Shown one piece after another: positions 39,247-61,300 of a stretch of 64,000 nt of DNA (positions within the stretch are counted from its first letter, which is position 1; each line of letters begins with the position of its first letter). The DNA is taken from contig CAWCYD010000003.1 of NCBI GenBank assembly GCA_963799775.1, positions 608,001-672,000 on the forward strand, read 5' to 3'. The notes beneath the pieces are model-generated. The model ran no database searches, was not told the DNA's origin, and was given only the letters and a program-made list of their open reading frames with translations. A program made the position numbers and the translations under genes. This DNA is from an uncultured archaeon (GTDB taxonomy: Archaea; Thermoproteota; Nitrososphaeria; Nitrososphaerales; Gagatemarchaeaceae).

Positions 39247-41723
39247 GTGGCGGACTCTTTCGTCTCATCGAATTCGTCTGAGGTCTTCCTCCGCCGCTTC
39301 ACTATCTGCCTCGCTCCCAAGGCGATGACGACGATTATCACGATGACGATCAGTATCGGAAGGATGCTCCCGATTATCCCCAGGCTCCGAGAGGTCGCGC
39401 CCGAGATAGGGAGACTGCTCCCCGAGGTGACGAGGATGTTCGTCCCGGTCGTCTGGTTCCCCAAGGCCGGGTCATGGACCACGGCCGTGACGGTGGCGAC
39501 GCCGTTGGTTGCAGGGATGAAAGTGTCGGTAAACTGCCCGTTCGCATCGGTGACCCCGCCCGGAGTGAGCATGCTGCCCGAGGTCGTCGAGATCGAGACG
39601 TTCGCGCCCTTCACGGGCACCCCGTTAGCGTCGACCTGCAGCTGGACGGTTGCAGTGGCCGCGATGGCGATCACAGGCTCGGAGCTTATGAGAGTTATCG
39701 AGACAGGCAGGGACAACTCCAAGAGGTTCGCGCTGGATGAGCTCAGACCGCTAGACGAAGCAGTCAGGACCGTCGACCCTGGGCCCGAAGTCTTGACCAT
39801 CGTCCAGGCGTAGTCCGCTCCCTGTGGGATGTCGAGCTGGAGCGGCTTGGAGATCATGCTGCTGTTGGAGCTGGTTATCACGATTGGGGTGTCCTGCCGC
39901 GCCCGCGCAGGCTGCGAGGTCGAATCCTGCAGCTGGACTGCGATTATCGCGTCTCCCTGAGGCCCGAATGATTGGATCCCGCTCGAAGGGGCGATGTAAA
40001 AGCCGAGCTGGGAGGGCGCGGGGCTCACGCTCGTGAAACTCGCGGCCGAGGAGGAATAGCCAGAGGCCGTCGCTGTGATGTTGGCGACGCCGGGCGAGAT
40101 CGTCGTGCTCACGTTCGCGAGGGCGAAAGAACTGCCCGCGGCGAGGATGACGCTGGAGTTCAGGGTAGCGATGTTGGTGGTCGAGCTCGTCAGCATCACG
40201 GTTGTGTTAGCCGGCGCCTCGGCGGGGAGCCCTGATGCGTCCTCGAACGAGACCAGGAGCACAGAGTAGGCGTTCCCATCGGCCGGCAGCTTGGAGACCA
40301 CAGATTGGACAGCGACTTTGGTCGGCGTCGGGCCATAGCTGGCGACCGAGATGGAGGCCGACTGGAGGTTCTGGGCGATCGCCGTGATGAAGGTGCTCCC
40401 GACGGAGAAGGTGGACGTGAACGTAGCAACAGCGAAACTAGAGCCGGCGGCGATCGTCACATCCTCACCGACGTTCCCTACGGACGCATCTGAGGAGGTG
40501 AGCGTTACCTGGGTGTCTGTGGTCGCTAGAGCGGGGTTCCCACTGGCGTCGGTCAACGCCACCAGTATCGAGTCGTAGGGTTTCGCGTCAGCGGGGACAG
40601 GGTTGGGGGCAACCTCGAGGGCCAGCTTGACAGGGGAGACCGGACTGACCACCGTGACCACTGAGAACGCCGACCTTAGGCCCGGTGAGGATGCCGTGAG
40701 GTTAGCATTGCCGGCCACCGAGGCGCTCGAGAACGACGTCACCGAATACACCTCTCCCTGATGAATCGTGACGGTCTGCTGGACCGACACAATCGTGGTG
40801 TTAGACGATGCTATCACGACCGAGACAGGCGCGGGAGCAGGAGTCGGGTTTCCAGACGAGTCTACGAGAGTCACCACGAGCCTTCCTGAGGTGGCGGTCG
40901 CGACCGGGTCAGGCTGGGCGAAGAGCGCGAGACCGAAGGGCGAGGCCCCCTGAAGCGAGACAGTGCCCGACCCTGAGCCGAAACCAGAGGCCGAGGCAGT
41001 GATAGTCGCCGACCCAGGAGAGGCGCCCACATCGTACGCCGTCGAGGCGAAGATGGACCCGCTTGCTATCGTCAGAGTGCTGTTCGGAAGGCTCGCCACG
41101 TTGTTGTCCGAAGAGGAAAGCGTCACCAAGATGGGCGAGCTAGACTTTGCGGGAGACCCCGTAGAGTCGAGGGCCTCGACCAGAACGATTCCTGGAGCAG
41201 ACTGGCCCACCACCTGTGTCCCGGGAACGGGTATCACGCTCAGGCGGGTCGCGAAACCGCTGAGGGTGACAGTTGTGAGCGAAGTAGACACCGCGCTGAG
41301 TCCTGGCGAAGAGGCCGAGATCGACGTCGTCCCAGGAGTTGTGCTTGTGGTGAAGTTTGCGACCGCGAAGCAGGCCCCCTTCGAGATTGTCGCCTGCGAA
41401 GAGATGCTCCCGACGCCAGCCTGGGAGGAGGTCAGGAACACGACAGTGTCATTGAGCGCGAGAGACGCCCCGCCGGAGCTCTCTAAGTAGACCACCACCG
41501 CGGGATATGATCCGCCATCCGCGGGAAGCTTGGGCGGGATGACCGAGATGGCCAACGAGGTGGGAGTCGCCGAATGACTCTGAGCCGGGGATGAGGTGGT
41601 CGTCGTGGTGCTCGTGGTCGATGTCGATGCGGCCATGGCACCGGGGAAAACCAGGATTGAGAGAAGAAGCAACGCGGCGAATGAGAGAGCGCGAGACAGC
41701 GCGCCGCCAGCATAGCTCTTCAT
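39243..41723 (-). CDS. Surface protein with tandem invasin/intimin-type Ig-like repeats and C-terminal TM anchor
   Basis: Signal peptide, repeated PADG..V.L.D..GNP..VTLTSS..ITASA.G units, TM followed by KRRRK. Confidence 0.85.
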   Translation of the reverse strand: MKSYAGGALSRALSFAALLLLSILVFPGAMAASTSTTSTTTTTSSPAQSHSATPTSLAISVIPPKLPADGGSYPAVVVYLESSGGASLALNDTVVFLTSSQAGVGSISSQATISKGACFAVANFTTSTTPGTTSISASSPGLSAVSTSLTTVTLSGFATRLSVIPVPGTQVVGQSAPGIVLVEALDSTGSPAKSSSPILVTLSSSDNNVASLPNSTLTIASGSIFASTAYDVGASPGSATITASASGFGSGSGTVSLQGASPFGLALFAQPDPVATATSGRLVVTLVDSSGNPTPAPAPVSVVIASSNTTIVSVQQTVTIHQGEVYSVTSFSSASVAGNANLTASSPGLRSAFSVVTVVSPVSPVKLALEVAPNPVPADAKPYDSILVALTDASGNPALATTDTQVTLTSSDASVGNVGEDVTIAAGSSFAVATFTSTFSVGSTFITAIAQNLQSASISVASYGPTPTKVAVQSVVSKLPADGNAYSVLLVSFEDASGLPAEAPANTTVMLTSSTTNIATLNSSVILAAGSSFALANVSTTISPGVANITATASGYSSSAASFTSVSPAPSQLGFYIAPSSGIQSFGPQGDAIIAVQLQDSTSQPARARQDTPIVITSSNSSMISKPLQLDIPQGADYAWTMVKTSGPGSTVLTASSSGLSSSSANLLELSLPVSITLISSEPVIAIAATATVQLQVDANGVPVKGANVSISTTSGSMLTPGGVTDANGQFTDTFIPATNGVATVTAVVHDPALGNQTTGTNILVTSGSSLPISGATSRSLGIIGSILPILIVIVIIVVIALGARQIVKRRRKTSDEFDETKESAT

Positions 41724-41786: not shown

Positions 41787-44700
41787 CTACGAAAGAGACT
41801 TCGACATGTCCCTTCTCATCCTCATCAAGACAAGGATCGACGCGGAACCCGCTCCGGCGACGGCCGCGACCATGACGAAGAGCGAGATGATGCTCAGCGC
41901 CACTCGGCCGACAGGGATTGTCGCGCCAGAGGCCGCGTCTCCGTCGATGTGGGCGGTAGACCCCAAGCTTGTCACTTTCGCAGAATAGGTCCCGAGAGGT
42001 ATCATGGCCACGGAGAAGATCCCGTTGCTCTTGGTCACGCCGTTGATTGTGGTGCCGTTGGCGAGAGACATCGCGACGTGGGCCCCTGCCACAGGCAGCC
42101 CGAAGAGGTCGACCACCTTGAGGGAGGCGCTATACACTCGCGTCTCCAGTGTGATGTTGAGCGGCGCTCCCTTCACGACGAAGGAGGGCGAGCCCGCAGG
42201 CCCGACGCCGACTCCTTCCCAAACCACCGAGGAGACCGAGAAAGCCGTCCCGTTCGGGAACCACGCCGAGGAACCTTGGATCTCCGTTGTCGAGTTGCCT
42301 ATGGTTAGGTCGACGACGCTCGGTGTGACGGCGTTCCGTCCAACGCTGTCGAAGAACTGGAAGTTGACCAGATACTGCGTGTTCGCAGTGAATGCGAGTG
42401 TCACGGGGCCCGTGAAGGTCACGGAGGGCGTCGTGAAAGTGGAGGAGCTGGCGGAAGCTTGAACGGGGACTGGCGTTGCCCCGTTGATTGAATACGAAGA
42501 CAGGGTCTCAATCGTCCCTTGGCCCGAAGTGGCATTCCATTGGCGGGGGACCGTGAACGTCTCCTTCGAGCCGGAGTCGAAGTAGGAGTCCTGGGTCGGG
42601 GACGGAGGGATCGCAGAGACCTGCTGCGGGCCCGAGGTCGAGAGGAGGTATTGTGTCACGGAAGTTATCGCTATGGTGTGCGCCCCAGTCATGGACAGGC
42701 TGATCAGGAAGGTGCTGTTTCCAGGGCGCGTCAGGGTTGTCTTCGCGCCCCCGTCAATCGTGTAGCTCGTCGCGCTCTGCCTCGAGCCCGTCGAGTTGGT
42801 CGCCCAGGTCGAATCGAAGACAGCCTTGACGGCGACGCCGGAGTCATACCACCCTGGCAGATCTCCGGGGATGGTGGAGTTGGTGACCGATATCCACGGG
42901 ACCGGATTGGAGCTGAGGTGATACTGCGGGCCGGTCTTGGTCGTTATCGCTTCAGGCGCCGATATCCCGGACAGGCTGAGAGCTTGGACGGTGGAGGTGC
43001 TGAAGACGGTCGTCGTCTTCAGGCTGACCGTGTACGACACCAGCCTGCTCCCTGCGCTTGCAGTCCTTCCCCATACTCCGTTCAAGACGACCGAGACCGG
43101 CGTTCCGCTGTCATACCAATACTTGTCACCTGCAATCGCGGGAGGCGTGATCGAGGAGAGCGAGGCGATCCCTCCGCTGTCGAGGGTCAGCTGGTATTGC
43201 GTGACCACGTCGCCTGAGATCGACTCGGGCGATGTGATCTGCGCAAGATTGAGCGCGTTCACCAGACCGGACGAACCCACAGCGACGGGTGCCCCGCCGC
43301 TGATGGAGTAGGAGGCCAGCCTGTCTCCTGTGCCCGAGGCCCTGCTCCAGACGCTGTTCAGCACGACGCCCACAGGCGTCCCAGAGTCGTACCAGCCGGA
43401 GTCCAAGGGTATGCTGGGGCTCGTTATCGTTGATAGGGCGCTCGTCGTCGCCTTGTCGAGGGTCACCTGGTACTGGACGACGCTGGTGGTGTTGATGAGT
43501 TGAGGGGCAGTCATCGCCCCCGTCCTGATTGTCAACTGGTTCGTCTGGGCGATCTTTGTGACAGGCCCGCCGTCGAGCTGCCACGAAGCGGTCCGGTCGC
43601 CCGTCCCCGCGGAACGAGAATAGATCCCGTTGAGCACGACGCTCACGGCGGGGGATCCGGCATCATACCAGAAGGTGTCTCCCTGGAATGTGGACGGAGG
43701 TGAGACCGAGGCGAACGCACCAGCCGCTGCCGGGTTCAGCACCACCTCGTACTGCGTGGCGCTAGTTGTGGTGATGGAGATGGGGGTCTGGATTAGTGGA
43801 TTGGAGTAAGCTTGGATGGTCCCTGTGGTGTTGACGTGAAGGGTGGGCTGACCTGTTGCCGAGATGGATGTCAGTCGATGCCCGGTGCCGCCCGCTCTTC
43901 CCCAAGCTCCGTTGAGGGCGATCTGGACGGGTGAACCTGTGTCATACCAGTAGTTGTCTCCAGGGATGGTGGGCGGAGTGATGGAGCTGAGGCCCCCGCT
44001 CGCTCCCGCGTCGAGGCTTACCTGGAACTGGGTCACTGACTTGAAGGTGATGGTGTGGGGCCCTTCCATCGAGATGTAGAGGGTCAGCGTGGATAGGGGC
44101 TGAGACAGCGTCACGGGGCTCTTGGAGTCGATGGTGTAGGAAGTCACTCTGTATCCCGTCCCTTGTGACCTTCCCCAGACGCCCGGCGTGTTGAGGGTCG
44201 TGTTCGTGCCTGCGCTGACCCACTGCGTGGGGAGCGTCGCGCCTACGATGGTGAGGAGGTATTGCTGGTCGTAAGCGACGTCCACGATGTTGTTGGGGGC
44301 AGGGCCGATTATGGTCCCTGTCGCGGCGGGCGCGAACCACCTCTCAGTGCTTCCTGAGCTGGCGAGGATGCTCGTTGTGGAATACGTTGTCTGAGCGTCA
44401 GCCCAGAACATCTGCTCGCTTGTGGTGAGCGTCAACTGCTGGACGCTTCCCGCGAACATGTAGCTGAGGTTCGGCTGTGTCGACGACGGTGGAGCTTGCA
44501 GGCCCACGATGGAGAACGCGAACCCTTCGAGATACTGATGGAAGTAGACTGGGCTGATTTTGGTGGCCTGCGTTATCGTTCCCGTGGTCGAGTTGTTCAG
44601 CTCCCATCTCTCGCTGCTGTTCGTGCTGATGCAGCAGATATCAGCCGGCAGAGTGTAGGTCGAGCCGCCGTCGACCCAGACCGCCTCGTTCGCAGACGTC

Positions 44701-45737
44701 GAAGCCTTTGAGCCGAATTGCTGGTAGTTGAAGGGCGGCAGCGTCAAGCCCGTGGTGCTCCCTCCGTTGAACGTGAATGTGACGTTCACAAGGAACTGCT
44801 GGTAGTAGACCGGGGTGACCGGTATCGGGCCGGTCACCGTCCCGTTGTTGTCCATCGAGAGCGCCGTCCCCGTCTGCGCGGGCACCAAGACGGTCCCAAC
44901 CCACTTCTGATTGGTCACACTCACGGGCGTGATAACGGAGGTCCACGAATAGGATGCCCCCGCATCGAACCAGACGTTCTGAGTGCTCGGGCTCAGAGTG
45001 ATGCCCGTGTTCGAGCCGAATGCCATGCTGTCGATGACCGGGGCTGCCGGCGGTCCGCCCCCCACGACAGAGTAGCTCGTTGCGACCAGGTATTGGTGCC
45101 AATAGGTCGAGGTGATGCTCGTGGGAGCCGAGATCGTGCCGCTTCCACCCGAGGGGAGTATCCATCTCTCGTTGGTGGAGGTTCCAGGGAGCTCACCGCT
45201 GTAAGAGTAGGGGGAAGAGGCATCCACCCAGACCGGGCTGGCTCCCGCGGGCGATGAGGTGCCCGATCCCATCTCGTCATAGCTGACGGACGGCGGTGAG
45301 TATCCTGACCCTCCTTTCGTGATGTTGAAGTTGAACGTCACCAGGTACTGATGGTAATAGCTGAAGCTGATCGTCAGAGGCGTCGTGATGACGCCCGAGA
45401 CGTCCTGACTGGTCGTCCACCTCTCCTTGCTCGAGGAGCCGTTGAGGACGGTCAGGGCGCTCCATTGCGTCCCCGAATCCACCAGGTAGCCTGTGGGCGT
45501 CGAGGTCAGGGGGACGACCACGGTCGCTCCGCCGCTTACGTATTGCAACAGGTCTTGAGTGCCGCTGGAGCCGCCGCCGATGACCGAGTAACTCGCGGTG
45601 AGGGTGACCTGCGACGTGGCGTGCGCAGGGACCGCAGAGGGCCCGGCGATGAAGGAGAACGCTAGAAATGCGACGGTTGCGAGTGACAGAACCCCCAAGA
45701 CTGAGCGAATCCTCAATTTCCGGCCCTCACCACTCAT
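41787..45737 (-). CDS. Large surface protein (1316 aa) with tandem QY-type beta repeats and C-terminal TM anchor
   Basis: Signal peptide, more than ten repeats of W.DSG...ERW...QY.V, C-terminal TM. Confidence 0.85.
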   Translation of the reverse strand: MSGEGRKLRIRSVLGVLSLATVAFLAFSFIAGPSAVPAHATSQVTLTASYSVIGGGSSGTQDLLQYVSGGATVVVPLTSTPTGYLVDSGTQWSALTVLNGSSSKERWTTSQDVSGVITTPLTISFSYYHQYLVTFNFNITKGGSGYSPPSVSYDEMGSGTSSPAGASPVWVDASSPYSYSGELPGTSTNERWILPSGGSGTISAPTSITSTYWHQYLVATSYSVVGGGPPAAPVIDSMAFGSNTGITLSPSTQNVWFDAGASYSWTSVITPVSVTNQKWVGTVLVPAQTGTALSMDNNGTVTGPIPVTPVYYQQFLVNVTFTFNGGSTTGLTLPPFNYQQFGSKASTSANEAVWVDGGSTYTLPADICCISTNSSERWELNNSTTGTITQATKISPVYFHQYLEGFAFSIVGLQAPPSSTQPNLSYMFAGSVQQLTLTTSEQMFWADAQTTYSTTSILASSGSTERWFAPAATGTIIGPAPNNIVDVAYDQQYLLTIVGATLPTQWVSAGTNTTLNTPGVWGRSQGTGYRVTSYTIDSKSPVTLSQPLSTLTLYISMEGPHTITFKSVTQFQVSLDAGASGGLSSITPPTIPGDNYWYDTGSPVQIALNGAWGRAGGTGHRLTSISATGQPTLHVNTTGTIQAYSNPLIQTPISITTTSATQYEVVLNPAAAGAFASVSPPSTFQGDTFWYDAGSPAVSVVLNGIYSRSAGTGDRTASWQLDGGPVTKIAQTNQLTIRTGAMTAPQLINTTSVVQYQVTLDKATTSALSTITSPSIPLDSGWYDSGTPVGVVLNSVWSRASGTGDRLASYSISGGAPVAVGSSGLVNALNLAQITSPESISGDVVTQYQLTLDSGGIASLSSITPPAIAGDKYWYDSGTPVSVVLNGVWGRTASAGSRLVSYTVSLKTTTVFSTSTVQALSLSGISAPEAITTKTGPQYHLSSNPVPWISVTNSTIPGDLPGWYDSGVAVKAVFDSTWATNSTGSRQSATSYTIDGGAKTTLTRPGNSTFLISLSMTGAHTIAITSVTQYLLSTSGPQQVSAIPPSPTQDSYFDSGSKETFTVPRQWNATSGQGTIETLSSYSINGATPVPVQASASSSTFTTPSVTFTGPVTLAFTANTQYLVNFQFFDSVGRNAVTPSVVDLTIGNSTTEIQGSSAWFPNGTAFSVSSVVWEGVGVGPAGSPSFVVKGAPLNITLETRVYSASLKVVDLFGLPVAGAHVAMSLANGTTINGVTKSNGIFSVAMIPLGTYSAKVTSLGSTAHIDGDAASGATIPVGRVALSIISLFVMVAAVAGAGSASILVLMRMRRDMSKSLS

Positions 45738-45890: not shown

Positions 45891-46772
45891 GTGTATGCGG
45901 GATTCATATTACTTTTATCGCCCGAGAGGCGGTTTTCACGCGTTATTCTCATGCGCCCTCGGGTGTTGAATCTCGCTGCTCCTTCAAGCGAAGACACCTA
46001 CGAGCTTCTGCTCAACGTAAAATCAAAGATAGGCGTGCTCCATGAGATAACGGGGTTCCTTGCGAAGTCCAAGATAGACATACTCTCCATGCACATCCAA
46101 GCGGCACGAGGAAAGACGGCGGTCATCGTCGCGTACCTTGAGATGGAGGAGTCCAAGACCAACGTCCAGAAGCTCTTGCGAGACCTCCGGGACCTTGATT
46201 TCGTCATCGAGGCAGAGGCCGTGAAGAAGGACGGGCTCATGTTCGAGGAATTCCTATTCCCGATCTTGGTAGACGACGAAGTACGAGGATTCCTGATGAC
46301 GGACAGCGCCTGGATGTCCATAGCGTCCAGGATGGTCCTCACCTACGGAACGGGAGGGCTGGCGATCCTCTACGAGGCAGGGTTGGCGTGCGGCGAGGAA
46401 TACGCCCGGCACCTCCACGCCAAGTTGGGGCTCAACGCGAGCGCAAAGGCGGCCATCGAGAACCTCGGCGCCATGCTGAGGGCAGTGGGGATGGGCGTCA
46501 CAGAGATGAACGCGACCACCGACGGGTTCCTCGTGAAGGTCACGCAACCGGTAATCCCGGCGACGGAGACCAAATTCCACGACCGATTCCTGGCGGGCCT
46601 CATCGCCGGCGCGGCGGGGAGGTTGATGGCCACTAGCTACTCGGTGGAGAACGTAAAGTTCGAGGGAGACGAGCTGAGTTTCAAGCTCAGCCAGCGCGCT
46701 CCTGAGAACCGGACAAACGAAGCCAGAGCCAGAGGTCCTGAGAGCTCGATCAAGAGCGTCCGAGTGCCCTAG
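45891..46772 (+). CDS. ACT + V4R-like sensor protein
   Basis: VKSKIGVLHEITGFLAKSKIDILS (ACT), then ILYEAG..G.EYA...GMG...FLAGLIAG. Start may be 45951. Confidence 0.75.
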   Translation: MYAGFILLLSPERRFSRVILMRPRVLNLAAPSSEDTYELLLNVKSKIGVLHEITGFLAKSKIDILSMHIQAARGKTAVIVAYLEMEESKTNVQKLLRDLRDLDFVIEAEAVKKDGLMFEEFLFPILVDDEVRGFLMTDSAWMSIASRMVLTYGTGGLAILYEAGLACGEEYARHLHAKLGLNASAKAAIENLGAMLRAVGMGVTEMNATTDGFLVKVTQPVIPATETKFHDRFLAGLIAGAAGRLMATSYSVENVKFEGDELSFKLSQRAPENRTNEARARGPESSIKSVRVP

Positions 46773-48149
46773 GCCTGCTTCTTGACGTGCAGGCCGCCCG
46801 AATCGTAGCTAAAGTTGGCCGAGTAGAGGTTCCTGACCACGTTGATCGTCTTGTCATCGTGGGCCTTTGAGAGGACTATGGAGACGAAGACGACGTCGCC
46901 GCGGCTCACTATCTCGTTCATCTGTCTAAGGAACTTGTAGGTCTCCTGGAACCCTCCGTCGAGGATCATCGACGAGATGTTGTCGAAGACGATCGCCTTC
47001 GGCTTTTCCGGGGACTCGGTGACCGCCTCGTCCATCACGTTCAGCAGCACCGAGTGGTCGTTTCGGGGGACAAGGACCTCGAGCGGCGTGCCAGACGCCT
47101 TTGGATAGGAGACGTCGGCGAAGACGAAGAAGCGCACCCCTGGGGCCTCGTGAACCAAGAGATAGACGGGGCTTCCCTTGGAGGTGAGGACGAAGACGGT
47201 GCGCCCTTTGGCCAGCATGTCCTGCCCAAAGTCCCTGATCGCGCGCTCGTAGTTGGAGGAAGGGTCGGCCTCCAGGAGCGTGGACCCCTTGTATTCTACC
47301 ACGCTACCTCGCGCTCCGGGTTCCCTATTAATATCCGATGGGGTCATGGTGGCCGAATTCGCGGAATCCGTCGGCTTGAAGAGATCCTCGAGGACGGAGC
47401 CCCGTCTCATGGCTATCCCTATGCTCGCCAGGAGGAGGCCGACGATCACCTGGCCGGGTGCTATCGCGTCGACGGAGACCGTGGGAAGGTAGCCCAGGAT
47501 CATCAGGCCCACGAACGCTATCAGTGTCCCAGCCCCCCGAGATCAGCGTCACGGCCCTTCTCGTGGAGCTGTCGCGTATCGCCCTGATGCCTATCACGTA
47601 CTCGGTGGTCGGGAACACGAGGAAGATGAGGAACGCCACCTCTGCGAGGCCGAGGAACGAGCTGTCCAGTCTCGGAAGGAGGTCTTGTGCGCCCGTAAAG
47701 TCGTGGAGGGTGGCGATCGTGAAAGGCTGCTTCACCACCAATAGGACGTCCAGAGCGAGCAGGTAGGCCACGAACAGGAGGAGGCCGAGGCCGTAAGGAA
47801 AGAAGCGCTTTGTGACGAGGGCCACCACCCTCTCTTGGAACGTCGGCTCCGGAGGCCGACAGCAGATGACGTAGGCCAGGCTCGTCAGCAGGATCCCTAT
47901 CCAGAGGATCAGGCTGATCGTCCCGACCGTGTAGAACTCCATGTAACCCGGGACCGAAGAGAAGATGCCGCGCAGGAACTCGAGGAGGAAGATCACCAGG
48001 ATGAAGACGTGAGCGAAGACGAGGATCCACTTCGCGTCGTAGAGCCTGGATATCTTCTGCCTGAGGACGAACCGGAGCGCCACCGACCCTGCCGCGAACT
48101 CAAAGATCGCGAAGAGGACGACCAGAGAGACGGGTAGCGAGCTCGTCAA
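46769..48149 (-). CDS. Multi-pass membrane sensor fused to an inactive KaiC-like (DUF835-like) domain; frameshift near 47535
   Basis: About 7-8 TM segments, then TLLEADPSSNYE...IVFDNISSMIL...TYKFL. Break lies in a C7 run. Confidence 0.7.
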
Positions 48150-48193: not shown

Positions 48194-48970
48194 TCAATCT
48201 TCCACGCCTGCGACCTGAGGGCTCCTACCGCCCTCCGCAGACAGCACCGACATGACCATGAGGATGCCGCCGAGACAGATCCCTATCCTCCCAACCCAGA
48301 ACACGACTGCGTCGAATTGCCAATCAGACAAGAGAAGGGCGAAGAGGCCCACCGCGATCGTCGCCAAGGACCAGGAATACCAATACAGGATTGAGGAGGT
48401 CGACCTGAGCCCTATGAGGACCGCCGCCAGTCCGAAGATGGCGATCGCGCCGCCGAGCACGGTCTTAGCCGCCGAAGTCGCCCCCGCCCCGGGGTTGAGG
48501 AATCTTGGGAGCACTCCTTGTCCGGCGGCCAATACTATAGCGCCGACGAGGAGCACTGACAGGGCCATGACCCCGAGAGCCGCTAGGCCCGAACCTCTGC
48601 GTTCACTTTGGTGAAAGAACCTGGAAGCCGCGCACGAGAGATGCAGGACCGCTGAGCAGACCGCGGCCAGGATGAAGACCAAGGTGGAGATGTTCGAACC
48701 AGAGTTCCCTGCGAGCAATGCTGCGACCAGCGCTGCGACGCCGAAGACCAGGGAGCCCGACCCCAAGAAGAGCATGCTCGGGAGACCTTCCTTGACGTAG
48801 GCTCTCACCGACACATAGGAGACTATCACTGAACCCGAGGTGATGAAGACTATCGTCAAGACCGGGAAGACAGGGACGGGCAGGGGAGAGGCGGTGAGCT
48901 TCGCCTCATAACTCAAGACGGTGAGAACGACGAGAATCGCCGCTCCGACAGCGCCTTGAAGCCTGGCCAC
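48194..48970 (-). CDS. Stand-alone multi-pass membrane sensor-like protein (MASE-type)
   Basis: About eight TM segments resembling N-terminal sensor modules of kinases, no cytoplasmic domain. Confidence 0.55.
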   Translation of the reverse strand: MARLQGAVGAAILVVLTVLSYEAKLTASPLPVPVFPVLTIVFITSGSVIVSYVSVRAYVKEGLPSMLFLGSGSLVFGVAALVAALLAGNSGSNISTLVFILAAVCSAVLHLSCAASRFFHQSERRGSGLAALGVMALSVLLVGAIVLAAGQGVLPRFLNPGAGATSAAKTVLGGAIAIFGLAAVLIGLRSTSSILYWYSWSLATIAVGLFALLLSDWQFDAVVFWVGRIGICLGGILMVMSVLSAEGGRSPQVAGVED

Positions 48971-48979
48971 TACTCAGCT

Positions 48980-49489
48980 TCACTTTTTGAAGGCGGCTGC
49001 GAATCTTTGCGAAGTGAGCTCGATGGAGGCCTCCAGTTGCCGATTATGGTGTGAGACCAATTCTGACCTGTGCGCGCCGTCGCTCGGCAACGTCGCGAGT
49101 TCGACGAACCTCTTCAAGATCTTCTTCTCGTTCGACGTCACTGAGTGGTTCGGTGCTCCGGCGAGCGCCACGAGGCCCGACCAGCGGTGATGAGGTCTAT
49201 CCTTCCCTACTTGGTCTGCCGTGTTACGAAGCAGTATCCTCGCTATCTCGCATTCGATTATGTGCGCGCCCCTCTCTTGGAATATCTCAGTCATCGCTTG
49301 GTGGAACCTCAAAGGATCGGCCGCGAGACTGGGAAGGGGGTGGAGGCTGAGTAGCATCTGAAGCCCGCTCTCTCCCACGACCTGGCGCAGGCCCTCGGTC
49401 ACGCTCTGCTCTAGGACTACCTGGAAATCTGGCGCGCCGCTTTTCTTTCGCACTCCGGGCTCCAAATCGAGGTCTTTTGCCGGTTGCAT
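48980..49489 (-). CDS. NitrOD5/DUF3227-like small signalling protein
   Basis: EGLRQVVGESG...P.RFHQAMTEIF..GAHIIE.EI pattern. Confidence 0.55.
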   Translation of the reverse strand: MQPAKDLDLEPGVRKKSGAPDFQVVLEQSVTEGLRQVVGESGLQMLLSLHPLPSLAADPLRFHQAMTEIFQERGAHIIECEIARILLRNTADQVGKDRPHHRWSGLVALAGAPNHSVTSNEKKILKRFVELATLPSDGAHRSELVSHHNRQLEASIELTSQRFAAAFKK

Positions 49490-49652
49490 CAGGAATCTAT
49501 ATAGGGATTATGAATTTGGTAATACACCGCGGTCCAGGCGAGCTCCAACTTGCAATAATTGTAGTCTGCTCCCTGTAGTTCATCGGACCTATCTGGAATA
49601 GTAACGTGGTCCTGCATATTCCGATAATACACGAACGGCCGCTGAAGCAGAC

Positions 49653-49886
49653 ATGAATTCTCTGTTTCTGCACAGGCTGGTCAAGGCGGCGCCGTTCGCA
49701 ATGACCGTCTTCGGCGTTCTCTTAATGGCCCACGGGGTTCATGGAGTCGTCCACAACGGGGATCCGGGAGGCAATGGCGGACCCAACATCCACGCCATCT
49801 CCAACGGAGACCCCGGCGGCAACGGTGGGCCCAACCTTGGCAGGATTTCTAACGGCGATCCGGGCGGAAACGGTGGACCTAACTAG
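49653..49886 (+). CDS. Putative secreted peptide precursor with three NGDPGGNGGPN cores
   Basis: Basic/hydrophobic leader and three 16-aa units whose 11-aa cores differ only at synonymous positions. Confidence 0.8.
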   Translation: MNSLFLHRLVKAAPFAMTVFGVLLMAHGVHGVVHNGDPGGNGGPNIHAISNGDPGGNGGPNLGRISNGDPGGNGGPN

Positions 49887-50986
49887 GTCCACCGTTGGGC
49901 CTTTATTCTCATCTTCTGAGGGAGGATCTTCTCCAGAGCTGACTTGGGCTCGAAGAACCATCCTTTCTCGTCATCGTAGTTCTCGTAGGGGATCGTGTAC
50001 CAGAAGCTCGTGGACAGGTCGAGCGTCCAGGCCGTCCATGTGCCCACTTGCGCGCTGAGATGCTGTGACAGGAACCTCATGGATTCCATGAGCGACCCAG
50101 CTGGGACAGCGCAATGCACCTGGTAGTAACCGTCTTTCCGGCCGGCTTCGAACCAGGAGAACGGGAAGTTGTTGAACAAGGTCCTGAGCGCCTCTAGATT
50201 CTTCTTCGTCAGGTTGTTGAACTCGTAGACGAGCCCTGCTGAGGTGCCTACGTCCTTCTTCGAGTCCGGGAGCCAGTGGACGTAGCTGGAGAGGGCCGTC
50301 GGAGATACGTGCTTCGCGTAATGCCAGCGCAACGTCCGCTCATTGATGCGGAGCTTCCTCGCTATCTCTGCGATGTTACGCCAAGAGTCCAGCTCGAGCT
50401 CCTTTATGATCAGGGTGTCGGTCGAGTCGATCTCTGGCGATGCGCTTGGTTCTTCCGCGCCCGATATCGCTGGCGGCTTCTCCGTCTGTTTTGCAATCTC
50501 GTCCCAGTCTATGGACCAAGCCCCTCGGCTGAAATCATAGAATCTGCTCTTGATCTCCGGGTGTCGAGACCACTCCAGCCTTTCTATCCGGGCCTCTGTC
50601 AGCACGCCTTCATGCACGAGCCTGTCCATGAACTTTCGGAACTCGTCGGTGACGGCGACAGGGACTGCGAAGAACGAAAGATAGCGAAGGTCTGCCGGGC
50701 TCTTCACCCAATAGGTCAGGAATGCGGAGGAAGAGAGGCTGTCGAGGATTGCCGGAGCGGAGTTCCTGGATTCCTCCGTGAACTTCATCACGACGAAATA
50801 GCGCTCGAGCCCCATGTAGTCGTAGTTCACGGGCGTCCTGATGTCCAGGCCCAGGGTAGGAAACCTCTTCTTCACCGTGTATCTTACGGTCTCTACCGGC
50901 ATCCCGCTCATCCGTGAGAGGAGCGAGATGTTCTGGATCCCGACTCTGTCGATTGCCTCAATCAGCTTTGTGATGTCCCGAGTCAT
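49883..50986 (-). CDS. Two-HTH transcriptional regulator (Lrp/AsnC-like duplicated architecture)
   Basis: N-terminal NISLLSRMSGMPVETVRY and internal IDSTDTLIIKELE...IAEIARKLRINERTLRWHY. Confidence 0.75.
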   Translation of the reverse strand: MTRDITKLIEAIDRVGIQNISLLSRMSGMPVETVRYTVKKRFPTLGLDIRTPVNYDYMGLERYFVVMKFTEESRNSAPAILDSLSSSAFLTYWVKSPADLRYLSFFAVPVAVTDEFRKFMDRLVHEGVLTEARIERLEWSRHPEIKSRFYDFSRGAWSIDWDEIAKQTEKPPAISGAEEPSASPEIDSTDTLIIKELELDSWRNIAEIARKLRINERTLRWHYAKHVSPTALSSYVHWLPDSKKDVGTSAGLVYEFNNLTKKNLEALRTLFNNFPFSWFEAGRKDGYYQVHCAVPAGSLMESMRFLSQHLSAQVGTWTAWTLDLSTSFWYTIPYENYDDEKGWFFEPKSALEKILPQKMRIKAQRWT

Positions 50987-51082: not shown

Positions 51083-51742
51083 CTAGACCATTTCGGGAGG
51101 CTTCCAGGTCACCTTGAGCTCGCACTTGACGCCATTGACGGCCTCGCAAGCGAGCTCGTACGCTGTCGCCTCGACCGCGAGAAGGGTTGAGACCATGCCT
51201 TCGATGTAGCCCCGCACATACCAGCACCTGGGCTCCTCGTCGACCGTATTTCTCACCATAGGGGAGTTGTGCATCGATATCCTCGCTTCGTTATGGAGCA
51301 AATCAATCTCTTCGATCTTGATCGCGCCCCAACCTAGTTTGTTGTAGGTGTGCGCGAGCTGCGCTGCCAACTGGTCGATGCCCACCTCGTCCGCAAGGTT
51401 CGCGAACTTCTTGCCTTCCGTCTTTCCCACGGTCTTTCCTGCGTTATACCAGATGACGAAGGCTCCAGTTCCAAGGACGGAGACTTCGCTCTCATAGACG
51501 CGCCGCAGCGCTTCGCCAGAGATCAGGACCCAGTCCTCCCCTGATGAGGCCCGAAGTTCTCCCCGGGAAGCGTCGAGAGAAGGCATCACGTCTTCGTCCT
51601 TGACGTGCGGTCTGCCCTCCACGGAGTGGAAGGAGCGCTCAGAGACAATATTCGCTTTCTTTCCATTTCGGAAATTCCCGGCCCGCATCTTTCTGCAATA
51701 GAACGAGAATCTGAATTCAGCATCCACACGAAACCAGCACAA
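51083..51742 (-). CDS. V4R-domain protein
   Basis: WYNAGK..G, LGWG, PRCWYVRGYIEG, ELAC...KC. True start probably near 51586-51606. Confidence 0.8.
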   Translation of the reverse strand: MCWFRVDAEFRFSFYCRKMRAGNFRNGKKANIVSERSFHSVEGRPHVKDEDVMPSLDASRGELRASSGEDWVLISGEALRRVYESEVSVLGTGAFVIWYNAGKTVGKTEGKKFANLADEVGIDQLAAQLAHTYNKLGWGAIKIEEIDLLHNEARISMHNSPMVRNTVDEEPRCWYVRGYIEGMVSTLLAVEATAYELACEAVNGVKCELKVTWKPPEMV

Positions 51743-52018: not shown

Positions 52019-52492
52019 TTGATGAGTTTTCACTCTCGTAAAGACTTATGTAGCCTGTTGCCGTTTGCATGGGATGTCGTGGAAGGGTCAGTTAATTCGG
52101 TATCAATCCTCGATATCGACTCGCTAGTCCGAAAGTATAGGAGAGGAATGGTCAACTCTCTCCTGGAGTACCTGATCCTGAACTCGCTCGAAAAGAGCAA
52201 GATGTGCGGCTACGACATTATCAAGCTGCTGCACGAGAGATTCCACACGTTGCTCAGCCCCGGACAGGTCTACCCGGTGATCGATCATCTTGCGAGGCAG
52301 GGCCTCATCGAGAAGGAGAAGGAAGGGAGGTCCGTGATGCTCTCCGCGTCCCACCTCGGACAGTCATTGCTAAAGGCGTGGAGAGAGGAACTGCGTAGCA
52401 TCCAGATGGAAGTAGACAATCTTGGCGTCCAAAAGCCAGGATTGGGTCGCGGGAGTGAAGCGCTTCGTCTCGATCCCATCCTCGCGAGTTAG
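52019..52492 (+). CDS. PadR-family regulator
   Basis: LEYLILNSL...CGYDIIK...LSPGQVYP. Confidence 0.85.
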   Translation: MMSFHSRKDLCSLLPFAWDVVEGSVNSVSILDIDSLVRKYRRGMVNSLLEYLILNSLEKSKMCGYDIIKLLHERFHTLLSPGQVYPVIDHLARQGLIEKEKEGRSVMLSASHLGQSLLKAWREELRSIQMEVDNLGVQKPGLGRGSEALRLDPILAS

Positions 52493-56560: not shown

Positions 56561-57800
56561 ATGTCTGTCGTTGCCATGCTCTCGGTTTGGCAGCCTCATG
56601 ATAACGGTGTCTTGACTGGAATTCTACGTGAATGCAGGATCCTGACATACAACGCAATCGAATATGCTGAAAACAACGGACTAAAGAGCAGGAAGCAGAT
56701 GAACGGGTTCTACCGGTCGATAAATAGTGTCAATCTACCATCCTGCTTCAAACTCGCAATAATTACGCGCGCCTGTTCTGTACTTAGGAGTAGGAGAAAG
56801 AGCGAAAACAAATCCGTCCAGGTGAAGTATCGAAAGCCTCTGAAGCTTATGGCCTGCATAACAGCTGGATTCTTCATTACCTCTAAGGGCAAGTTGTTCA
56901 TCTCGCTGGGTCATGATAAATTCGAGATGGTCCAACTCAACTGCTACGCCTTCGCCAAAGTCTCTGCGCCCAATATCAAAATGAGGAGCCTGACAATAAC
57001 AGAAGATAGGATTGGAATCTGCTACTCGAAACAGGTTGAAGCGATACATTGTCATCGAGTCTTCGGTGTCGATAGGAACGAGAAGAACCTCACTTTTGGC
57101 AATCGAGATGCATTCGAGACGATAGATCTGTCACAGATAGCGCGAGTGAATCAGACAACGAGAGAGATCCTGAGCTCCTTCAAAAGAAACGATGATAGAG
57201 TCAAGAGACGACTATTCGATAAGTACTGGGGACGGGCCAGTAGAAGAACGAATCAGGTGCTCCACGATGCGACTAACCGTATCGTTGAAAAAGCTAGATC
57301 TGAGGGTGCGGCGTTGGCCCTTGAGGACATCGCAGGAATCAACAAGATGTATCAGAAGGGCAACGGGCAAGGAAAAGACTATCGATTCAGGATGAATTCC
57401 TGGGCGCATGGAAAGACATGCAGGATGATCGATTACAAATCTGCCGACAAGGGCGTGACTGTTGTGAAGCTCACAAAAACAGAGACCAGAGGGTCTTCAT
57501 CGACTCATTTTGGGTGTGGGGAGAAGCTCCAAAGCCCAGCCAAGAGAGATCTGGTTCATCGGCGACACCTCTGGTGCAATAAATGCGAGCGTTGGGTTCA
57601 CCGCGACGTCAACGCGGTGTTCAATCTGGCTGACAGGGGGCTGTCCAGGCTTGCCAGTTCCCTGCCTCCTTCTGAGAAGATGGAGGTGAAAGGGCATGCA
57701 GGTGAAGCTATGAATGGGAATCCGACGACGATGGCAGTAATCCCAGGAGCAGATGCCATGCAAGTGGACTCTGGGTGCGAACCGAAGAGTTAACAGAGCC
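56561..57800 (+). mobile_element. tnpB: IS200/IS605-family TnpB-only element, tnpB ORF intact (56561-57793)
   Basis: RuvC motifs GVDRN, LALEDI, HRDVNA, zinc-finger-like HFGC..CNKC, visibly more AT-rich than flanks. Confidence 0.9.
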
Positions 57801-58356: not shown

Positions 58357-61300
58357 TTGAATATCTTAGGCCGCAGGGCCGGCCCGTTAGTTATTGCAGT
58401 AGTTGCCGTCTTCTTGGCGTTTTCGGCCCTGGGTTATCATGCAGCTTCCGCAACAACAGGAACCACCACGAGTGTTTCATGCACTCCATCAATCACTGTC
58501 GGTAACCCCGCGACGTGCACGGTAACGGTAACACCAAGCTCTGCGGATGCAGCGACCGTCACCATCGCTCAAACAGGAGGAAGCGGGGCCGTGACCGGTT
58601 CGAGCTGCATGACAAGCCCGGCAAACAGTGAGACGTGTACTACAAACCTACCCAGCACCGGTGCAGGAAGCGTTACTGTGACGGCGACCTACCCAGCTGA
58701 TAGTAACTTCATGACGAGCTCCGACCCAACGAGCTTCACAGTGAATCCAGCCCAGAGCAGTGTTTTCGTCAGTTGTGCTCCCTCACCTGTCGTCGTTGGC
58801 ACCTCGACCACGTGCACCGCCACCGTCGGCGGGTATGGTACGCCTTCGGGAACTGTGACTTTCACACAACCGACAGGGACAGGGACCACTTCGCTCGTAG
58901 GTCCGGGCACCACGTGCGCCCTAAGTTCAGGGACTTGCCAGGTCACCGTCTCGACCACCGCGGCAGGGGGAGCCGGCATATTGGCCTCGTATCCGGGTGA
59001 TGGCGTGAACAACAAGGCGGGCTCGGGTTCGACAAACCTCACTATCAACCAAGTCACCAGCACGACGACGGTGGTCTGTGCGCCCTCGACCTTGATAGTC
59101 GGTCAGCCGGCCACGTGCTCGGCGACGGTGAGTGGGTATAATCCTACAGGCATCATCAATTGGCAGTCGACGGACAGAAGCGGCATTTTCTCCGCGAATC
59201 CATGCATGCTCAACTCGGGCTCATGCGGCGTATCGTATACACCCACCTCCTCGGCGACCATAACCGCGAGCTACTCCGGCGACCAGAACAACATCGGCGG
59301 CTTTGGGACGTTTGCGATCTCGACCCACGTCAACGAGCTGATCCAGGTCGTGGTGGCCAACTCCGGGCCACCGACGCCTCTGAGCCTGTCGGGTTGCTTC
59401 GTCTCTCCGAACACCATAGTCGCTAACGGGACCGCCCAGAAAGTGGAAGTGGCCTCGGCCTGCTCTCTCACGGTGACCCTTCCCTCCGCAGGCGTGAGCT
59501 CCCAGTATGTCACTTCTTCGGGGCTCAACGCCCTGACCATCGGCAGCTGCAACACGGCCACCTGCCAGAGCTATTCTGCAATCATATACTACCAGACCCA
59601 GAACACCTACCAGGCCTTCCCGAAGAGTCCTTCCGCATGGGGTTCGCCGGGGACGATAGTCGTCAACGGCACCCAGCTCGGCTCTAGCGGCCAGACAGTC
59701 TGCTCAATCAAGGTCAGCACAGGCGCGGGCGAGTTCTCATGTGAGGGGTGGACAGACTACAACACCCAGGCGCTCATGGGCTTCCTCCAGCTCTCTCAGC
59801 AGCAGAGATGGGCGAGCCCTCAGAGCTCCTTCACCGACACGTCTGGCGGGAATCAGCACCCCGCAAATTACTTCCTGCAGGTCCTGGAGGGCTTCAGCTA
59901 CTCCGTGATTGGCTCGAGCGGCGCCCCATCGTCGCCAACGCTCTCTTTCACTTCATTGGGCTCGCCGAACTCCTCTCCCCTCATCGGATCCGCCACATCC
60001 ATCTGGCTTGACTCTGGCTCGAGTTGGGCGGTCCCCCAAAGCTTGACGGGCTCGTCGAGCACCGAGAGGTGGCAGACGACGGTCACAACGGGAGCAGCGA
60101 CGGCCAACAAGACGGCGACCATCGTCTATTATCACCAGTTCCTGGTCGACTTTGGCTTCTCTATCGTTGGGGGAGGGACGGCCTACGTCTCCCCGCTCGT
60201 GCAGTTCACCTCCTTCGGAGCACCAGCTAGCGGGACTCAGAACTGGGTCGACGCTGGGAGCCCGTTCAACTACACCAACCCTCTCGCGGGTTCCACATCG
60301 GTAGAGAGATGGCTCGCCGCCTCGCCAAAGGGAACGGTGTCATCCTCGACCACCGTCAATCCGACCTATTACCATCAGTTCGCTTTCAACGTGAACTTCA
60401 CGGTGTCAGGGGGAGGCGCCTACAACAACCCGAGGTTCAACTTCACCGCGATGGGAGTCCCCACCCTGCAGCAGCTCAGCTCGACGCAGTCCACCTATTG
60501 GCTGGACGCGACCACGCCCTGGAGCATCAACTCTCTCCTACCGAGTTCGAACTTCTCGGAGCAGTGGATAACGACGCGCGTCTCCTCAGGGACCGCGACC
60601 TCGCCTTTCATCGCGGACTACCTCTACTACCACCAGTATCTGGCGACCATCCATTACAGCATCCTGGGCTCGGGCGGCTCCCCTCCAGTGCCCTCGATGA
60701 ACTTCACTTCAATCAGCAATACCCAGTCGGCGCACCTCAACAAGACCGCGACGACCTATTGGATGGACGCGGGAAGCTCATGGGTCGCGCCGGTCATCCT
60801 TCCCGGGATACATGACGAGCGCTGGCTCTCCAACATGACGGTCGCCGCGCTGGTTGACCAGCCCTTCAGCACCAACGTCCAGTACGCGCACCAGTTCTTC
60901 GTCTCTGTGGAGGTGAGCACGCCCGCGGGAGGCCAGGTCGCGAACACCGACCAGTGGAGGAACCAGGGCGACACCGAGATACTCAACGCGACATCTGCCA
61001 AGTTTTGGAGCTTCGCATACTGGAAGGGCGCCACGCCGTTCTCTTACAACGGGACGATGGCCCTGCCCACTCTGTTGGTCACAGGCACCGCCAACGAGAC
61101 GGCGATCTTCTTCCCTGGCCTGACGATATCAGCAGAGAGCCAGGGCTCAGTTTCCTACTCCTACGGCAAGATAAACGGGACCGTCCCCGCCGGGGCGAGC
61201 ATGACGATCTACCCGCCCCCGGGCAGGAACGTCACCCTCACCGCCATCCCTGACAACGTCGAGATAATGTTCGGGGGATGGACGGGGGTGCTCGCCAACT

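Follow-up and report, generated by a model that had tools for sequence, protein, structure and literature searches.

The window, meaning the whole stretch of 64,000 nucleotides of archaeal DNA that was analysed, carries at 49653-49886 on the + strand an ORF of 77 amino acids (aa), in which a leader is followed by three units of 16–17 aa, each with the same 11-aa core at its end. The leader (49653..49736) spans codons 1–28 and comprises a basic n-region (R8, K11), hydrophobic residues 12–26 and then Ala-His-Gly. Unit 1 (49737..49787) joins a 6-aa His-containing segment to the 11-aa core NGDPGGNGGPN, unit 2 (49788..49835) joins the spacer IHAIS to an identical core, and unit 3 (49836..49886) joins the spacer LGRIS to a further identical core, with the TAG stop codon directly after it; leader and units are all on the + strand. 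The repeat unit measures 48 nt, and the cores are found at 49755-49787, 49803-49835 and 49851-49883. The ORF, its three units and these core coordinates had been given in the initial annotation, and were found to be correct on re-translation and alignment of the units. Convergent to this gene, on the - strand at 49883..50986, lies a gene for a 367-aa protein with a predicted Lrp/AsnC-like fold, in which an HTH and a RAM-like alpha/beta domain occur twice in tandem; the stop codons of the two genes overlap. A PadR-family regulator gene (52019..52492, + strand; Pfam PadR, E 2.2e-9, above the cut-off) is a third member of the module within the genus.

On the promoter side of the peptide gene, a conserved cis element of the form AGTAAC-N8-TGMATAGT-N4-TAATA is present on the + strand at 49599..49629, with TAATA ending 23 nt before the ATG. 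The blocks of this element do not vary among 12 aligned upstream regions of orthologues, the element is also present at 17 metagenome loci, and the distance from TAATA to ATG is fixed at 22–23 nt in the orthologous and metagenome loci. It occurs a single time in the 2.47-Mb genome, even with three mismatches, and a control pattern gave 0 matches. Rfam models gave no match to 48900-50400 with E values of up to 1, indicating that the upstream element does not come from a known RNA family. From its sequence and position, TAATA may be the TATA box of a leaderless mRNA, with the upstream blocks as a candidate regulator site. At the other end of the gene, an inverted repeat (49869..49896) with 11-bp arms and a 6-nt loop extends across both convergent stop codons, and is followed by a T-rich tract (about 49902–49907). 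The arms vary together from species to species, and a stem over the stop codon was seen in 20/22 genes of the GDPGG clade in a by-eye reading of RNAfold output. This hairpin may serve as a terminator or a 3'-end stabiliser.

The 11-aa core is the same in 3/3 copies, and the 5-aa spacers diverge. Alignment of the three units shows nine variable columns within the 33-nt core, and 9/9 fall at third codon positions, in agreement with the earlier observation that the cores differ by synonymous changes only. Under random placement, the chance of nine out of nine variable core sites falling on the 11 third positions is C(11,9)/C(33,9) = 55/38,567,100, or ~1.4e-6. Tandem Repeats Finder reported no array at 49500-50000, and this blank result at the 77-aa ORF indicates that there is no recent DNA-level tandem array. 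Combined with the codon pattern seen across the family, it rules out recent slippage as the origin of the three cores. The composition of the 77-aa protein is Gly/Pro-rich and of low complexity, and no N-glycosylation sequon was seen by eye in the core in its translation. Scans against Pfam and NCBIfam gave no match for the protein, and a search of the ESM Atlas gave no usable match.

Orthologues of the gene were found in 11/22 other genomes of its genus, as well as in metagenomes, and whole-gene dN/dS ranged from 0.10 to 0.50 in eight equal-length pairs. Cores of identical amino acid sequence were present in 19/20 distinct multi-core coding sequences, with 3–9 of 10 core codons differing, and the variable core bases in those 19 genes amounted to 124 at codon position 3 and 0 at positions 1 or 2. 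The single exception, L054, has two non-synonymous codons. The 77-aa ORF is a real, conserved gene under purifying selection, and the proposal in the initial annotation that selection on the peptide, rather than recent slippage, accounts for the repeats is borne out by the blank Tandem Repeats Finder result, by the conservation of cores within genes and by the dN/dS values. The cores are the same within a gene and species-specific between genes, varying at core positions 6–8 and 10 (NGG, NTG, TGG, SGG, PGA, PGG, PGE, SGA, SGP and IGQ). Some neighbouring cores are only 1–2 nt apart, which points to ongoing duplication or conversion.

A profile search of 1.84 billion representatives returned 14 homologues, every one 44–80 aa in length, and none is part of the larger Gly/Pro-rich protein that had been allowed for at the outset. 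Among the longer matches of the wider family, the 11 that were examined (57–85 aa) owe their extra length to upstream start calls only. With all homologues being small, origin as a fragment of a larger Gly/Pro-rich protein was ruled out. The wider family comprises at least 351 database matches, for which the name, where given, is always 'hypothetical', and consists of 40–49-aa single-copy microproteins from Nitrososphaerales that, as far as tested, are non-ammonia-oxidising. The 77-aa gene is a derived multi-copy branch of this larger single-copy family. The initial annotation overlooked the single-copy family, as well as the pairing with a tandem Lrp/AsnC-fold gene and the non-ammonia-oxidising host. 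Going by titles or the openings of abstracts, no relevant publication was found for the GDPGG motif, and the family is likewise not described in the portions covered of the literature on Thaumarchaeota small proteins, archaeal peptide quorum sensing and archaeal RRNPP systems.

Comparison with the relatives also defines the unit that was multiplied. Unit 1 agrees in phase and length with units 2 and 3, and with the entire tail that follows the Gly in single-unit relatives, and the repeat phase of the multi-core genes begins exactly past this invariant Gly. The unit is present in one, two or three copies in close relatives, and where a gene has two units, each is 16 aa long with the same pattern. 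In multi-core relatives the end of the protein coincides with the end of a core, except in G011/P0004, where the third unit is out of frame, and in P0022, where a short tail extends past the second core. By position, the spacer of unit 2 is the orthologue of spacer 1 in L058 (5/18 nt differ, compared with 8–12 at non-matching positions), and the third core of the 77-aa ORF has 0/30 nt differences from the third core of L058. The positional orthology of the spacers indicates that the three-unit layout predates the species splits.

The leader was described at first as basic and hydrophobic, and this description holds: R8 and K11 precede the hydrophobic residues 12–26 as in the charged n-region and h-region of Sec-type signals, and the hydropathy profile, with a hydrophobic stretch of ~15 aa, is signal-peptide-like. 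Leader dN/dS is below 1 in 10/10 pairs. The residue at the putative -1 position, G28, is invariant across the family alignments (A2, A3 and A5), and the putative -3 position is Ala in most members and Leu, Val, Ser, Thr, Ile or Met in others. A signal-peptidase site may lie after G28, which the invariant Gly would fit. Prepilin-type signals carry Gly, Ala or Ser at -1 directly past the charged n-region, ahead of the hydrophobic stretch. A class III signal of this type was rejected, given that K11 is followed in many members by Val, Tyr, Trp or Phe and that a conserved Pro lies at leader position 14, within the hydrophobic stretch.

The best reading of the locus, which we consider to have about the same chance of being right as of being wrong, is that the gene encodes a multi-copy peptide precursor that is exported and has a regulator of its own, with export, cleavage and signalling all putative. 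Residues 1–28 would be a Sec-type signal peptide, cut past the invariant Gly (Ala-His-Gly in the 77-aa protein). In ordinary members of the family, this cut would free a C-terminal peptide of 14–16 aa with a pattern of five residues, Leu, Asp/Glu, x, Ile, Gly, Gly and 3–4 further residues. In one subclade of the genus, the entire freed unit would have been tandemly duplicated to 2–3 copies, each with a Pro-Asn end, and a putative endopeptidase would cut after each Pro-Asn, so that several identical peptides would result from each translation. The spacers (IHAIS, LGRIS and their orthologues) contain no dibasic pair or other known processing site, and the sole constant boundary between units is Pro-Asn before a hydrophobic residue. 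AlphaFold2 gave pLDDT <50 for residues 33–77, so a folded repeat domain is not predicted. Production would be controlled by the tandem-Lrp-like protein, together with the PadR protein within the genus, acting on the unique cis element. The peptide would then work extracellularly, with a species-specific signal as its most plausible role, and this is the weakest step of the proposal.

The prepro-protein of yeast alpha-factor is a multi-copy secreted precursor, in which a short peptide is repeated in tandem behind a leader. The archaeal precursor resembles this type in its signal-peptide-like leader and tandem identical cores, in the variation of core sequence and number among species, and in that the last copy ends the protein. 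It differs, however, in having no sequence relationship, no dibasic Lys-Arg sites and no pro-region, in being encoded by an archaeon, and in that its processing is putative.

The partner of the peptide gene was characterised mainly by structure prediction. AlphaFold2 produced a model of the 367-aa protein with a mean pLDDT of 81.8 and a pTM of 0.82, for which the top Foldseek match was NirDL (4ch7), over the full length (E 1.6e-9, TM 0.49/0.56), and many single Lrp/AsnC regulators matched one half of the protein at E of about 1e-3 to 1e-4. The protein is therefore predicted to have two HTH+RAM modules in one chain, RAM being a ligand domain of beta-alpha-beta-beta-alpha-beta order, like the fused siroheme decarboxylase NirDL and, in each half, the Lrp/AsnC (feast/famine) regulators; this likeness is apparent at the fold level only, from the order of secondary structures in the AlphaFold2 model and from Foldseek. 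Identity is ~10%, and no Pfam or NCBIfam model exceeded its cut-off, siroheme decarboxylase (NirDL/AhbAB) families included; the Pfam HTH matches were all sub-threshold, with an HTH_AsnC-type model at 14.4 bits against a cut-off of 27. A role as regulator or as enzyme is putative.

The pairing of the two genes is widespread. The 367-aa partner adjoins the peptide gene at 6/6 loci, and at 12/14 loci in a further comparison in which the two misses are cut contigs. Among the best 30 loci, from eight genera, the tandem-Lrp-fold gene is convergent with and abuts a microprotein gene at 29, counting convergent small ORFs scored by eye and with a stricter script in genomes that are kin and not independent, with gene order within one taxonomic family being partly inherited. 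Convergent pairing was also seen at 19/40 further paralogue loci; 21/40 of these second-tier loci, one of the 21 being without a flank, had no small ORF by the criteria used, which weighs against the best reading. The genome of the window holds three microprotein/tandem-Lrp pairs with different peptide tails, and there are six tandem-Lrp-fold paralogues per genome. The tandem-Lrp-fold gene family is paralogously expanded and tied to the microprotein family. The PadR gene is kept by the pair in the divergent clade G001/G007/G014, though other synteny has been lost there, and also in genus g10, and none was found within 1.5 kb of the pair in more distant genera.

The main rival to an exported precursor is an uncleaved single-pass membrane microprotein, with a signal anchor oriented N-in and C-out, which we regard as possible while leaning against it. 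The outside tail or the cytoplasmic stub of such a protein would modulate a membrane partner, or would tether and control the tandem-Lrp-like protein, and the repeats would be a multivalent display of one epitope and not separable products. The single-unit relatives have a hydrophobic stretch of 16–20 aa, long enough for a membrane anchor, and AlphaFold2 predicts a single long helix at residues 3–27 of the 77-aa protein (pLDDT 77–93 per 10-residue block). Paralogue groups share the N-terminal motif M-x-x-D-x-K-I-R, which is more conserved than is usual for the n-regions of signal peptides, and this would fit a functional cytoplasmic stub. The tight pairing with a cytoplasmic regulator-like protein also favours this view, as does the finding of no processing protease or exporter nearby, in the window or at the G007 locus. 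Among the loci compared, the peptide gene likewise has no conserved neighbour that is a protease, an exporter or a membrane receptor, which weighs against the exported precursor. On the other hand, the duplicated unit starts just past the invariant Gly and runs to the stop, as expected of a discrete product, and copies 2 and 3 would lie increasingly distant from the membrane. The hydrophobic stretch in the 77-aa protein itself is short and contains the conserved Pro, and the small residue at -1 is invariant family-wide, all of which speaks against an uncleaved anchor.

The peptide may instead be exported to bind metal through His and Asp ligands, for capture or buffering in acid soil and not as a signal, but we consider this improbable. 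H27 and H30 vary little or not at all within the GDPGG clade, the core Asp is invariant, and the His-Gly-rich segment ahead of the first core is expanded in some species (threefold HGVSGL in L055). A cut after Gly would moreover put His at position 2 of the peptide. Conservation is highest, however, in the Gly/Pro core and not at the His residues, the position of His in the first spacer is frequently taken by Arg, Gly or Gln in the second, and single-unit relatives from other genera often have no His past the Gly. The neighbourhood has no conserved metal transporter or metal regulator, the Zur-like NCBIfam match of the PadR protein being sub-threshold (17 bits against a cut-off of 167), and the species-specific changes in the core would be unexpected for a metal ligand.

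It is highly improbable that the gene encodes a RiPP precursor, in which an enzyme encoded elsewhere would recognise the leader and modify the cores before export. Multi-core precursors are known among RiPPs, and conservation of the leader is unusually high for a signal peptide. Yet many core variants lack Cys, Ser or Thr, the hydrophobicity of the leader is signal-peptide-like, and no modifying enzyme, recognition element, peptidase or transporter was found among the window neighbours scanned against Pfam and NCBIfam or at the G007 locus, nor is any conserved among the loci compared. For the neighbours scanned, this confirms the initial remark that neither a tailoring enzyme nor a protease is adjacent. 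Finally, the ORF might have no function, having arisen by chance, by slippage or as a piece of a larger structural protein rich in Gly and Pro; this would suit the low-complexity composition and the blank Pfam, NCBIfam and Atlas searches, but has practically no likelihood in view of the codon-position pattern and dN/dS below 1, the start, stop and promoter spacing kept by orthologues, the blank Tandem Repeats Finder result and the small size of all homologues.

Returning to the exported precursor, a more far-reaching proposal is that the microprotein/tandem-Lrp pairs are archaeal peptide-signalling cassettes, in which the C-terminal peptide would be sensed by its cognate tandem Lrp/AsnC-fold regulator; we put this forward tentatively and think it rather unlikely. 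Sensing could be direct after uptake, or indirect. The paralogous pairs would provide several private channels per cell, and the species-specific cores, three per precursor in this lineage, would represent pherotypes. Since the partner is predicted to have a soluble cytoplasmic fold, the signalling loop would need re-import or another sensor.

In Rgg/SHP and the other RRNPP cassettes of Firmicutes, a very small ORF, whose product has a hydrophobic leader and functions through its C-terminal end, lies beside a gene for a cytoplasmic HTH protein. The archaeal loci are similar in that a microprotein gene lies beside the gene for a predicted HTH protein, in that several paralogous pairs with differing tails occur per genome, and in that oligopeptide-binding-protein genes are present in the genome of the window. 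They are dissimilar in that the partner is predicted to contain HTH+RAM twice and no TPR, neither component is homologous, and the host belongs to a different domain of life. The precursor is also comparable with the Phr peptides of Bacillus, which the initial annotation brought up for a loose likeness of the core to Phr pentapeptides, as a small, putatively exported protein whose active part would be C-terminal, but a Rap-type or TPR neighbour is absent, and homology is without support here.

Searches for AmoA were blank in the genome of the window (81.7% complete) and in four genomes of the family that are 95–100% complete, and positive in G050, a genome that belongs to a different family within the order. 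As far as these searches go, the host is no ammonia oxidiser, and an idea of copper economy tied to ammonia oxidation was dropped because of these blank searches. The GC range, the absence of AmoA and a thermopsin neighbour appear to match the Gagatemarchaeaceae, presented in an excerpt of PMC10640624 as an acid-soil family. The host group consists of abundant, uncultured soil archaea.

The cell-cell signals of archaea named in an excerpt of PMC12240190 are a carboxylated acyl-homoserine lactone, diketopiperazines and an unidentified small molecule, with no ribosomal peptide among them, which is in keeping with the initial statement that no characterised peptide quorum-sensing system of this type is known in archaea. 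The locus is a concrete and testable candidate: its peptide is defined and open to synthesis, and the promoter element and the regulator-like partner are defined as well. Whatever its function, it links a family of 'hypothetical' microproteins with at least 351 clusters to an expanded tandem-Lrp-fold family, and offers a clean natural case of selection holding peptide copies identical while the DNA diverges. Should the signalling cassettes prove true, Archaea would have their first ribosomal-peptide system for cell-cell signalling, one whose components are not related to those used by bacteria.

The ORF at 49653–49886 on the forward strand encodes a 77-residue product (MNSLFLHRLVKAAPFAMTVFGVLLMAHGVHGVVHNGDPGGNGGPNIHAISNGDPGGNGGPNLGRISNGDPGGNGGPN) made up of a leader and three 48-nt units, and its coordinates and description in the initial annotation were correct. 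When the three units were aligned, nine variable columns were found within the 33-nt core, all of them at third codon positions and all synonymous, while the spacers between the cores diverge, confirming the pattern first read from the sequence. The probability of all nine sites falling on third positions by random placement is, by arithmetic, ~1.4e-6. No array was reported in this region by Tandem Repeats Finder, so as a stretch of DNA the repeat is an old one. Among 29 coding sequences compared, 27 were distinct, and 20 of these carry two or three cores. The 10-aa cores are identical as protein in 19 of these 20 genes, though 3–9 of the 10 codons differ, and the variable core bases in the 19 number 124 at codon position 3 and 0 at positions 1 or 2. 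The exception, locus L054, has two non-synonymous codons.

Between species, the core varies at positions 6–8 and 10, with the variants NGG, NTG, TGG, SGG, PGA, PGG, PGE, SGA, SGP and IGQ, and with N, D, S or T as the last residue. Within a gene the same variant occurs in all copies, the sole exception, known as protein only, being the protein-collection match P0015, whose first core is degenerate by our own reading. Spacers at matching positions in genome G000 and locus L058 differ by 3, 5 and 5 nt, compared with 8–12 nt at non-matching positions; they are positionally orthologous between species, and the three-unit layout is therefore older than the splits of those species. Adjacent cores are only 1–2 nt apart at three loci (L044, L046 and L043), and the copy number of units among close relatives is 1, 2 or 3, which together point to ongoing unit duplication or conversion. 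As judged from these alignments, the units undergo birth and death, with strong selection for all copies to encode one peptide. Two metagenome loci, L055 and L057, carry a threefold HGVSGL between leader and first core, where a His-Gly motif has thus expanded a second time, independently.

A six-frame search of 61 related genomes detected clear orthologues (E 5e-16 to 5e-29) in six further genomes from the same genus. Within the genus, a profile search recovered the gene from 11 of 22 further genomes, and from 0 of 74 genomes belonging to nine other genera of the family. Relatives also include 17 loci on metagenome contigs and 4 in species-representative genomes. A collection of 5.8 billion proteins gave 19 proteins at E ≤0.01, the query counted in, and a profile search through all 1.84 billion representatives returned only 14 clusters, every one of 44–80 aa and none with a homologue inside a larger protein. 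The homologues from genus genomes, metagenomes and protein collections are hence not the fragments of a larger protein that the initial annotation had allowed for. Whole-gene dN/dS was 0.10–0.50 for equal-length orthologue pairs (n = 8 pairs), and that of the leader was <1 in 10 of 10 pairs. Judged by these comparisons, the ORF is a real gene under selection, and a non-gene reading is excluded.

The gene has dedicated cis signals. The element AGTAAC-N8-TGMATAGT-N4-TAATA (49599–49629, forward strand) is conserved upstream of all orthologues and occurs once in the 2.47-Mb genome, with three mismatches permitted. The distance from TAATA to ATG is always 22–23 nt, and the intervening bases vary freely. 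Such a spacing is fitting for the TATA box of a leaderless archaeal mRNA and suits TAATA as a candidate for this role; the conserved blocks upstream of it look like a regulator site. In loci of another genus, g9, a different conserved motif (TTGATGAAAA...GAACTAGT-like) takes the place of this element 30–50 nt before the microprotein ATG. No Rfam family matched the window around the peptide gene (48900–50400). An 11-bp inverted repeat (49869–49896) at the 3' end of that gene spans the overlapping stop codons of the peptide gene and its convergent neighbour, and looks like a hairpin common to the 3' ends of both. A stem at the stop codon was seen in 20 of 22 genes with GDPGG-type cores (our own reading of RNA folds), and the arms co-vary between species, also at the same place in orthologous loci. 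The hairpin also accounts for the third core being nearly frozen at synonymous sites between species (0–3 differences). At locus L004 (genome G011; P0004 is the same protein), the third unit has lost the reading frame, and the ORF closes early with a short tail unlike the core, while a core remnant and the hairpin remain downstream; either a frameshift or an assembly error accounts for this.

The convergent neighbour (49883–50986, reverse strand; 367 aa) adjoins the peptide gene in 6/6 loci and in 12/14 of a second set, the other two contigs being cut off at that point. The peptide is ~30% identical and other flanking genes are different in a divergent clade (G001/G007/G014), where the peptide gene is still accompanied by this neighbour and a PadR gene alone. 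The neighbour had no family match above cut-off. Its AlphaFold2 model (pLDDT 81.8, pTM 0.82) contains two tandem modules, each an HTH followed by beta-alpha-beta-beta-alpha-beta. The best full-length Foldseek match was the fused siroheme decarboxylase NirDL (4ch7; E 1.6e-9, 10% identity), and one half matches many Lrp/AsnC regulators. The model therefore suggests a tandem Lrp/AsnC-fold protein, for which DNA binding is assumed. A V4R-domain gene (51083–51742, reverse strand) lies between it and the PadR gene, as in G020, and is absent in most relatives. In G007 a thermopsin, an acid protease (L065, 12613–14268; Pfam E 8e-57), is encoded ~1.5 kb past the PadR gene, something not conserved at other loci.

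This pairing extends well beyond the genus. The tandem-Lrp-fold family is an expanded one: of 97 genomes from the taxonomic family, 91 have matches, across all 10 genera and usually in several copies, with six in the window's own genome. Of the 30 best-matching loci (8 genera), 29 have an abutting convergent ORF of 40–49 aa and like build (GTG starts at two), L096 alone having none. Among 40 second-tier paralogue loci, 19 have such an ORF too, and one of the 40 lacked a flank in which to look for it. The window's genome has three such pairs with differing tails; the two outside the window are tandem-Lrp-fold genes at C3:231476-232558 and C3:689650-690645, each with a convergent microprotein ORF of 40–42 aa and a different C-terminal tail. 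In the alignment of this wider family, proteins begin M-x-x-D-x-K-I-R, continue with 16–20 hydrophobic residues and an invariant Gly, and then have five residues, Leu, Asp/Glu, x, Ile, Gly, Gly and 3–4 residues before the stop. The profile matched 351 proteins at E ≤0.001 among 738 candidates from the 5.8-billion collection, which, where named, are always 'hypothetical protein' and, where labelled by organism, Thaumarchaeota or Nitrososphaerales archaeon. The longer matches examined (11, of 57–85 aa) were mere upstream start calls, so that, among these, the multi-copy layout is apparently limited to one subclade. In the alignment, the GDPGG genes of the genus fall as a derived branch of this family.

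In the product, an N-terminal segment (residues 1–11, with R8 and K11) precedes a hydrophobic stretch at residues 12–26 of the hydropathy profile, directly followed by Ala-His-Gly, of which the Gly (G28) is invariant in every alignment. A prepilin-type signal was rejected, as the residue following K11 is often Val, Tyr or Trp. AlphaFold2 (35 sequences) predicted a confident helix at residues 3–27 and no order at residues 33–77 (pLDDT <50), which makes it unlikely that the repeats fold as a domain. The repeat phase starts directly after the invariant Gly, both units of two-unit genes are 16 aa (hydrophobic residue, His, three residues, core), and the protein ends with the core in nearly all members, so that the duplicated module corresponds to what signal-peptidase cleavage behind the Gly would leave. 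Of the internal arguments for the segment behind the Gly as a putative discrete product, these module boundaries are the strongest.

An exported multi-copy peptide precursor is the best-supported reading, held at about even confidence. The precursor would be exported by Sec, cleaved after Gly28 and after each Pro-Asn, and act extracellularly as a peptide, with the neighbouring regulators controlling its gene. Having several identical units after a single leader is most readily understood if these are released, or at least serve as equal ligands. The secreted, processed signal proposed initially is partly supported: coding, identical-core selection, the dedicated cis signals, membership of the wider family and the pairing stand, and export, cleavage, regulation by the neighbours and extracellular action are what we infer. 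The main rival, tentative and less probable, is a membrane microprotein that stays uncleaved and acts on a partner through its conserved cytoplasmic stub or its short outer tail, and the longer hydrophobic stretch and conserved N-terminal motif of single-unit relatives favour it. A metal-binding peptide is improbable. A RiPP precursor is very improbable. Across the neighbours and loci compared, the pair has no conserved protease, exporter, modifying enzyme or membrane receptor next to it, in line with the earlier remark that no tailoring enzyme or dedicated protease is adjacent.

Relatives of the peptide gene are labelled Nitrososphaerales or Thaumarchaeota. A search for AmoA was negative in the window's genome and in four family genomes (95–100% complete), and positive in a genome from another family of the order. 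Gagatemarchaeaceae are described in PMC10640624 as non-ammonia-oxidising archaea of acid soils with 54–62% GC, thermopsin and oligopeptide transporters; GC in the window is 52–67%, and the window's genome has two oligopeptide-binding-protein matches. With the thermopsin gene of G007, these traits suggest that the organism may belong to that family. Elsewhere in the window, three large paralogues (39243–41723 and 41787–45737, reverse, 826 and 1316 aa; 58357–61479, forward, 1040 aa) with bacterial Ig-like or invasin-like domains and conserved synteny are probably surface proteins. Two reverse-strand ORFs (46769–47512 and 47328–48149) overlap by ~185 nt in different frames; between them they have a part that spans the membrane several times and one that weakly resembles DUF835/DUF7504, and they may be one frameshifted gene. 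A 410-aa ORF (56561–57793, forward), absent at the syntenic loci compared, encodes a TnpB-like transposon-associated nuclease, judging by its Cas12f1-like TNB domain (Pfam E 1.4e-9).

The peptide gene would work like multi-copy precursors of the alpha-factor type, whose processing sites it does not have. Its layout is similar to that of Rgg/SHP-type cassettes, except that its partner has an Lrp-like fold in place of TPR. The gene belongs to neither family. A literature search returned nothing describing the microprotein family, and no peptide is among the archaeal signals listed in PMC12240190. The exported precursor would be a known kind of system, built from non-homologous parts, in a domain from which no characterised example is known. 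In its boldest form, which is doubtful, it would be the first system in archaea to signal by ribosomal peptides, through several paralogous channels.
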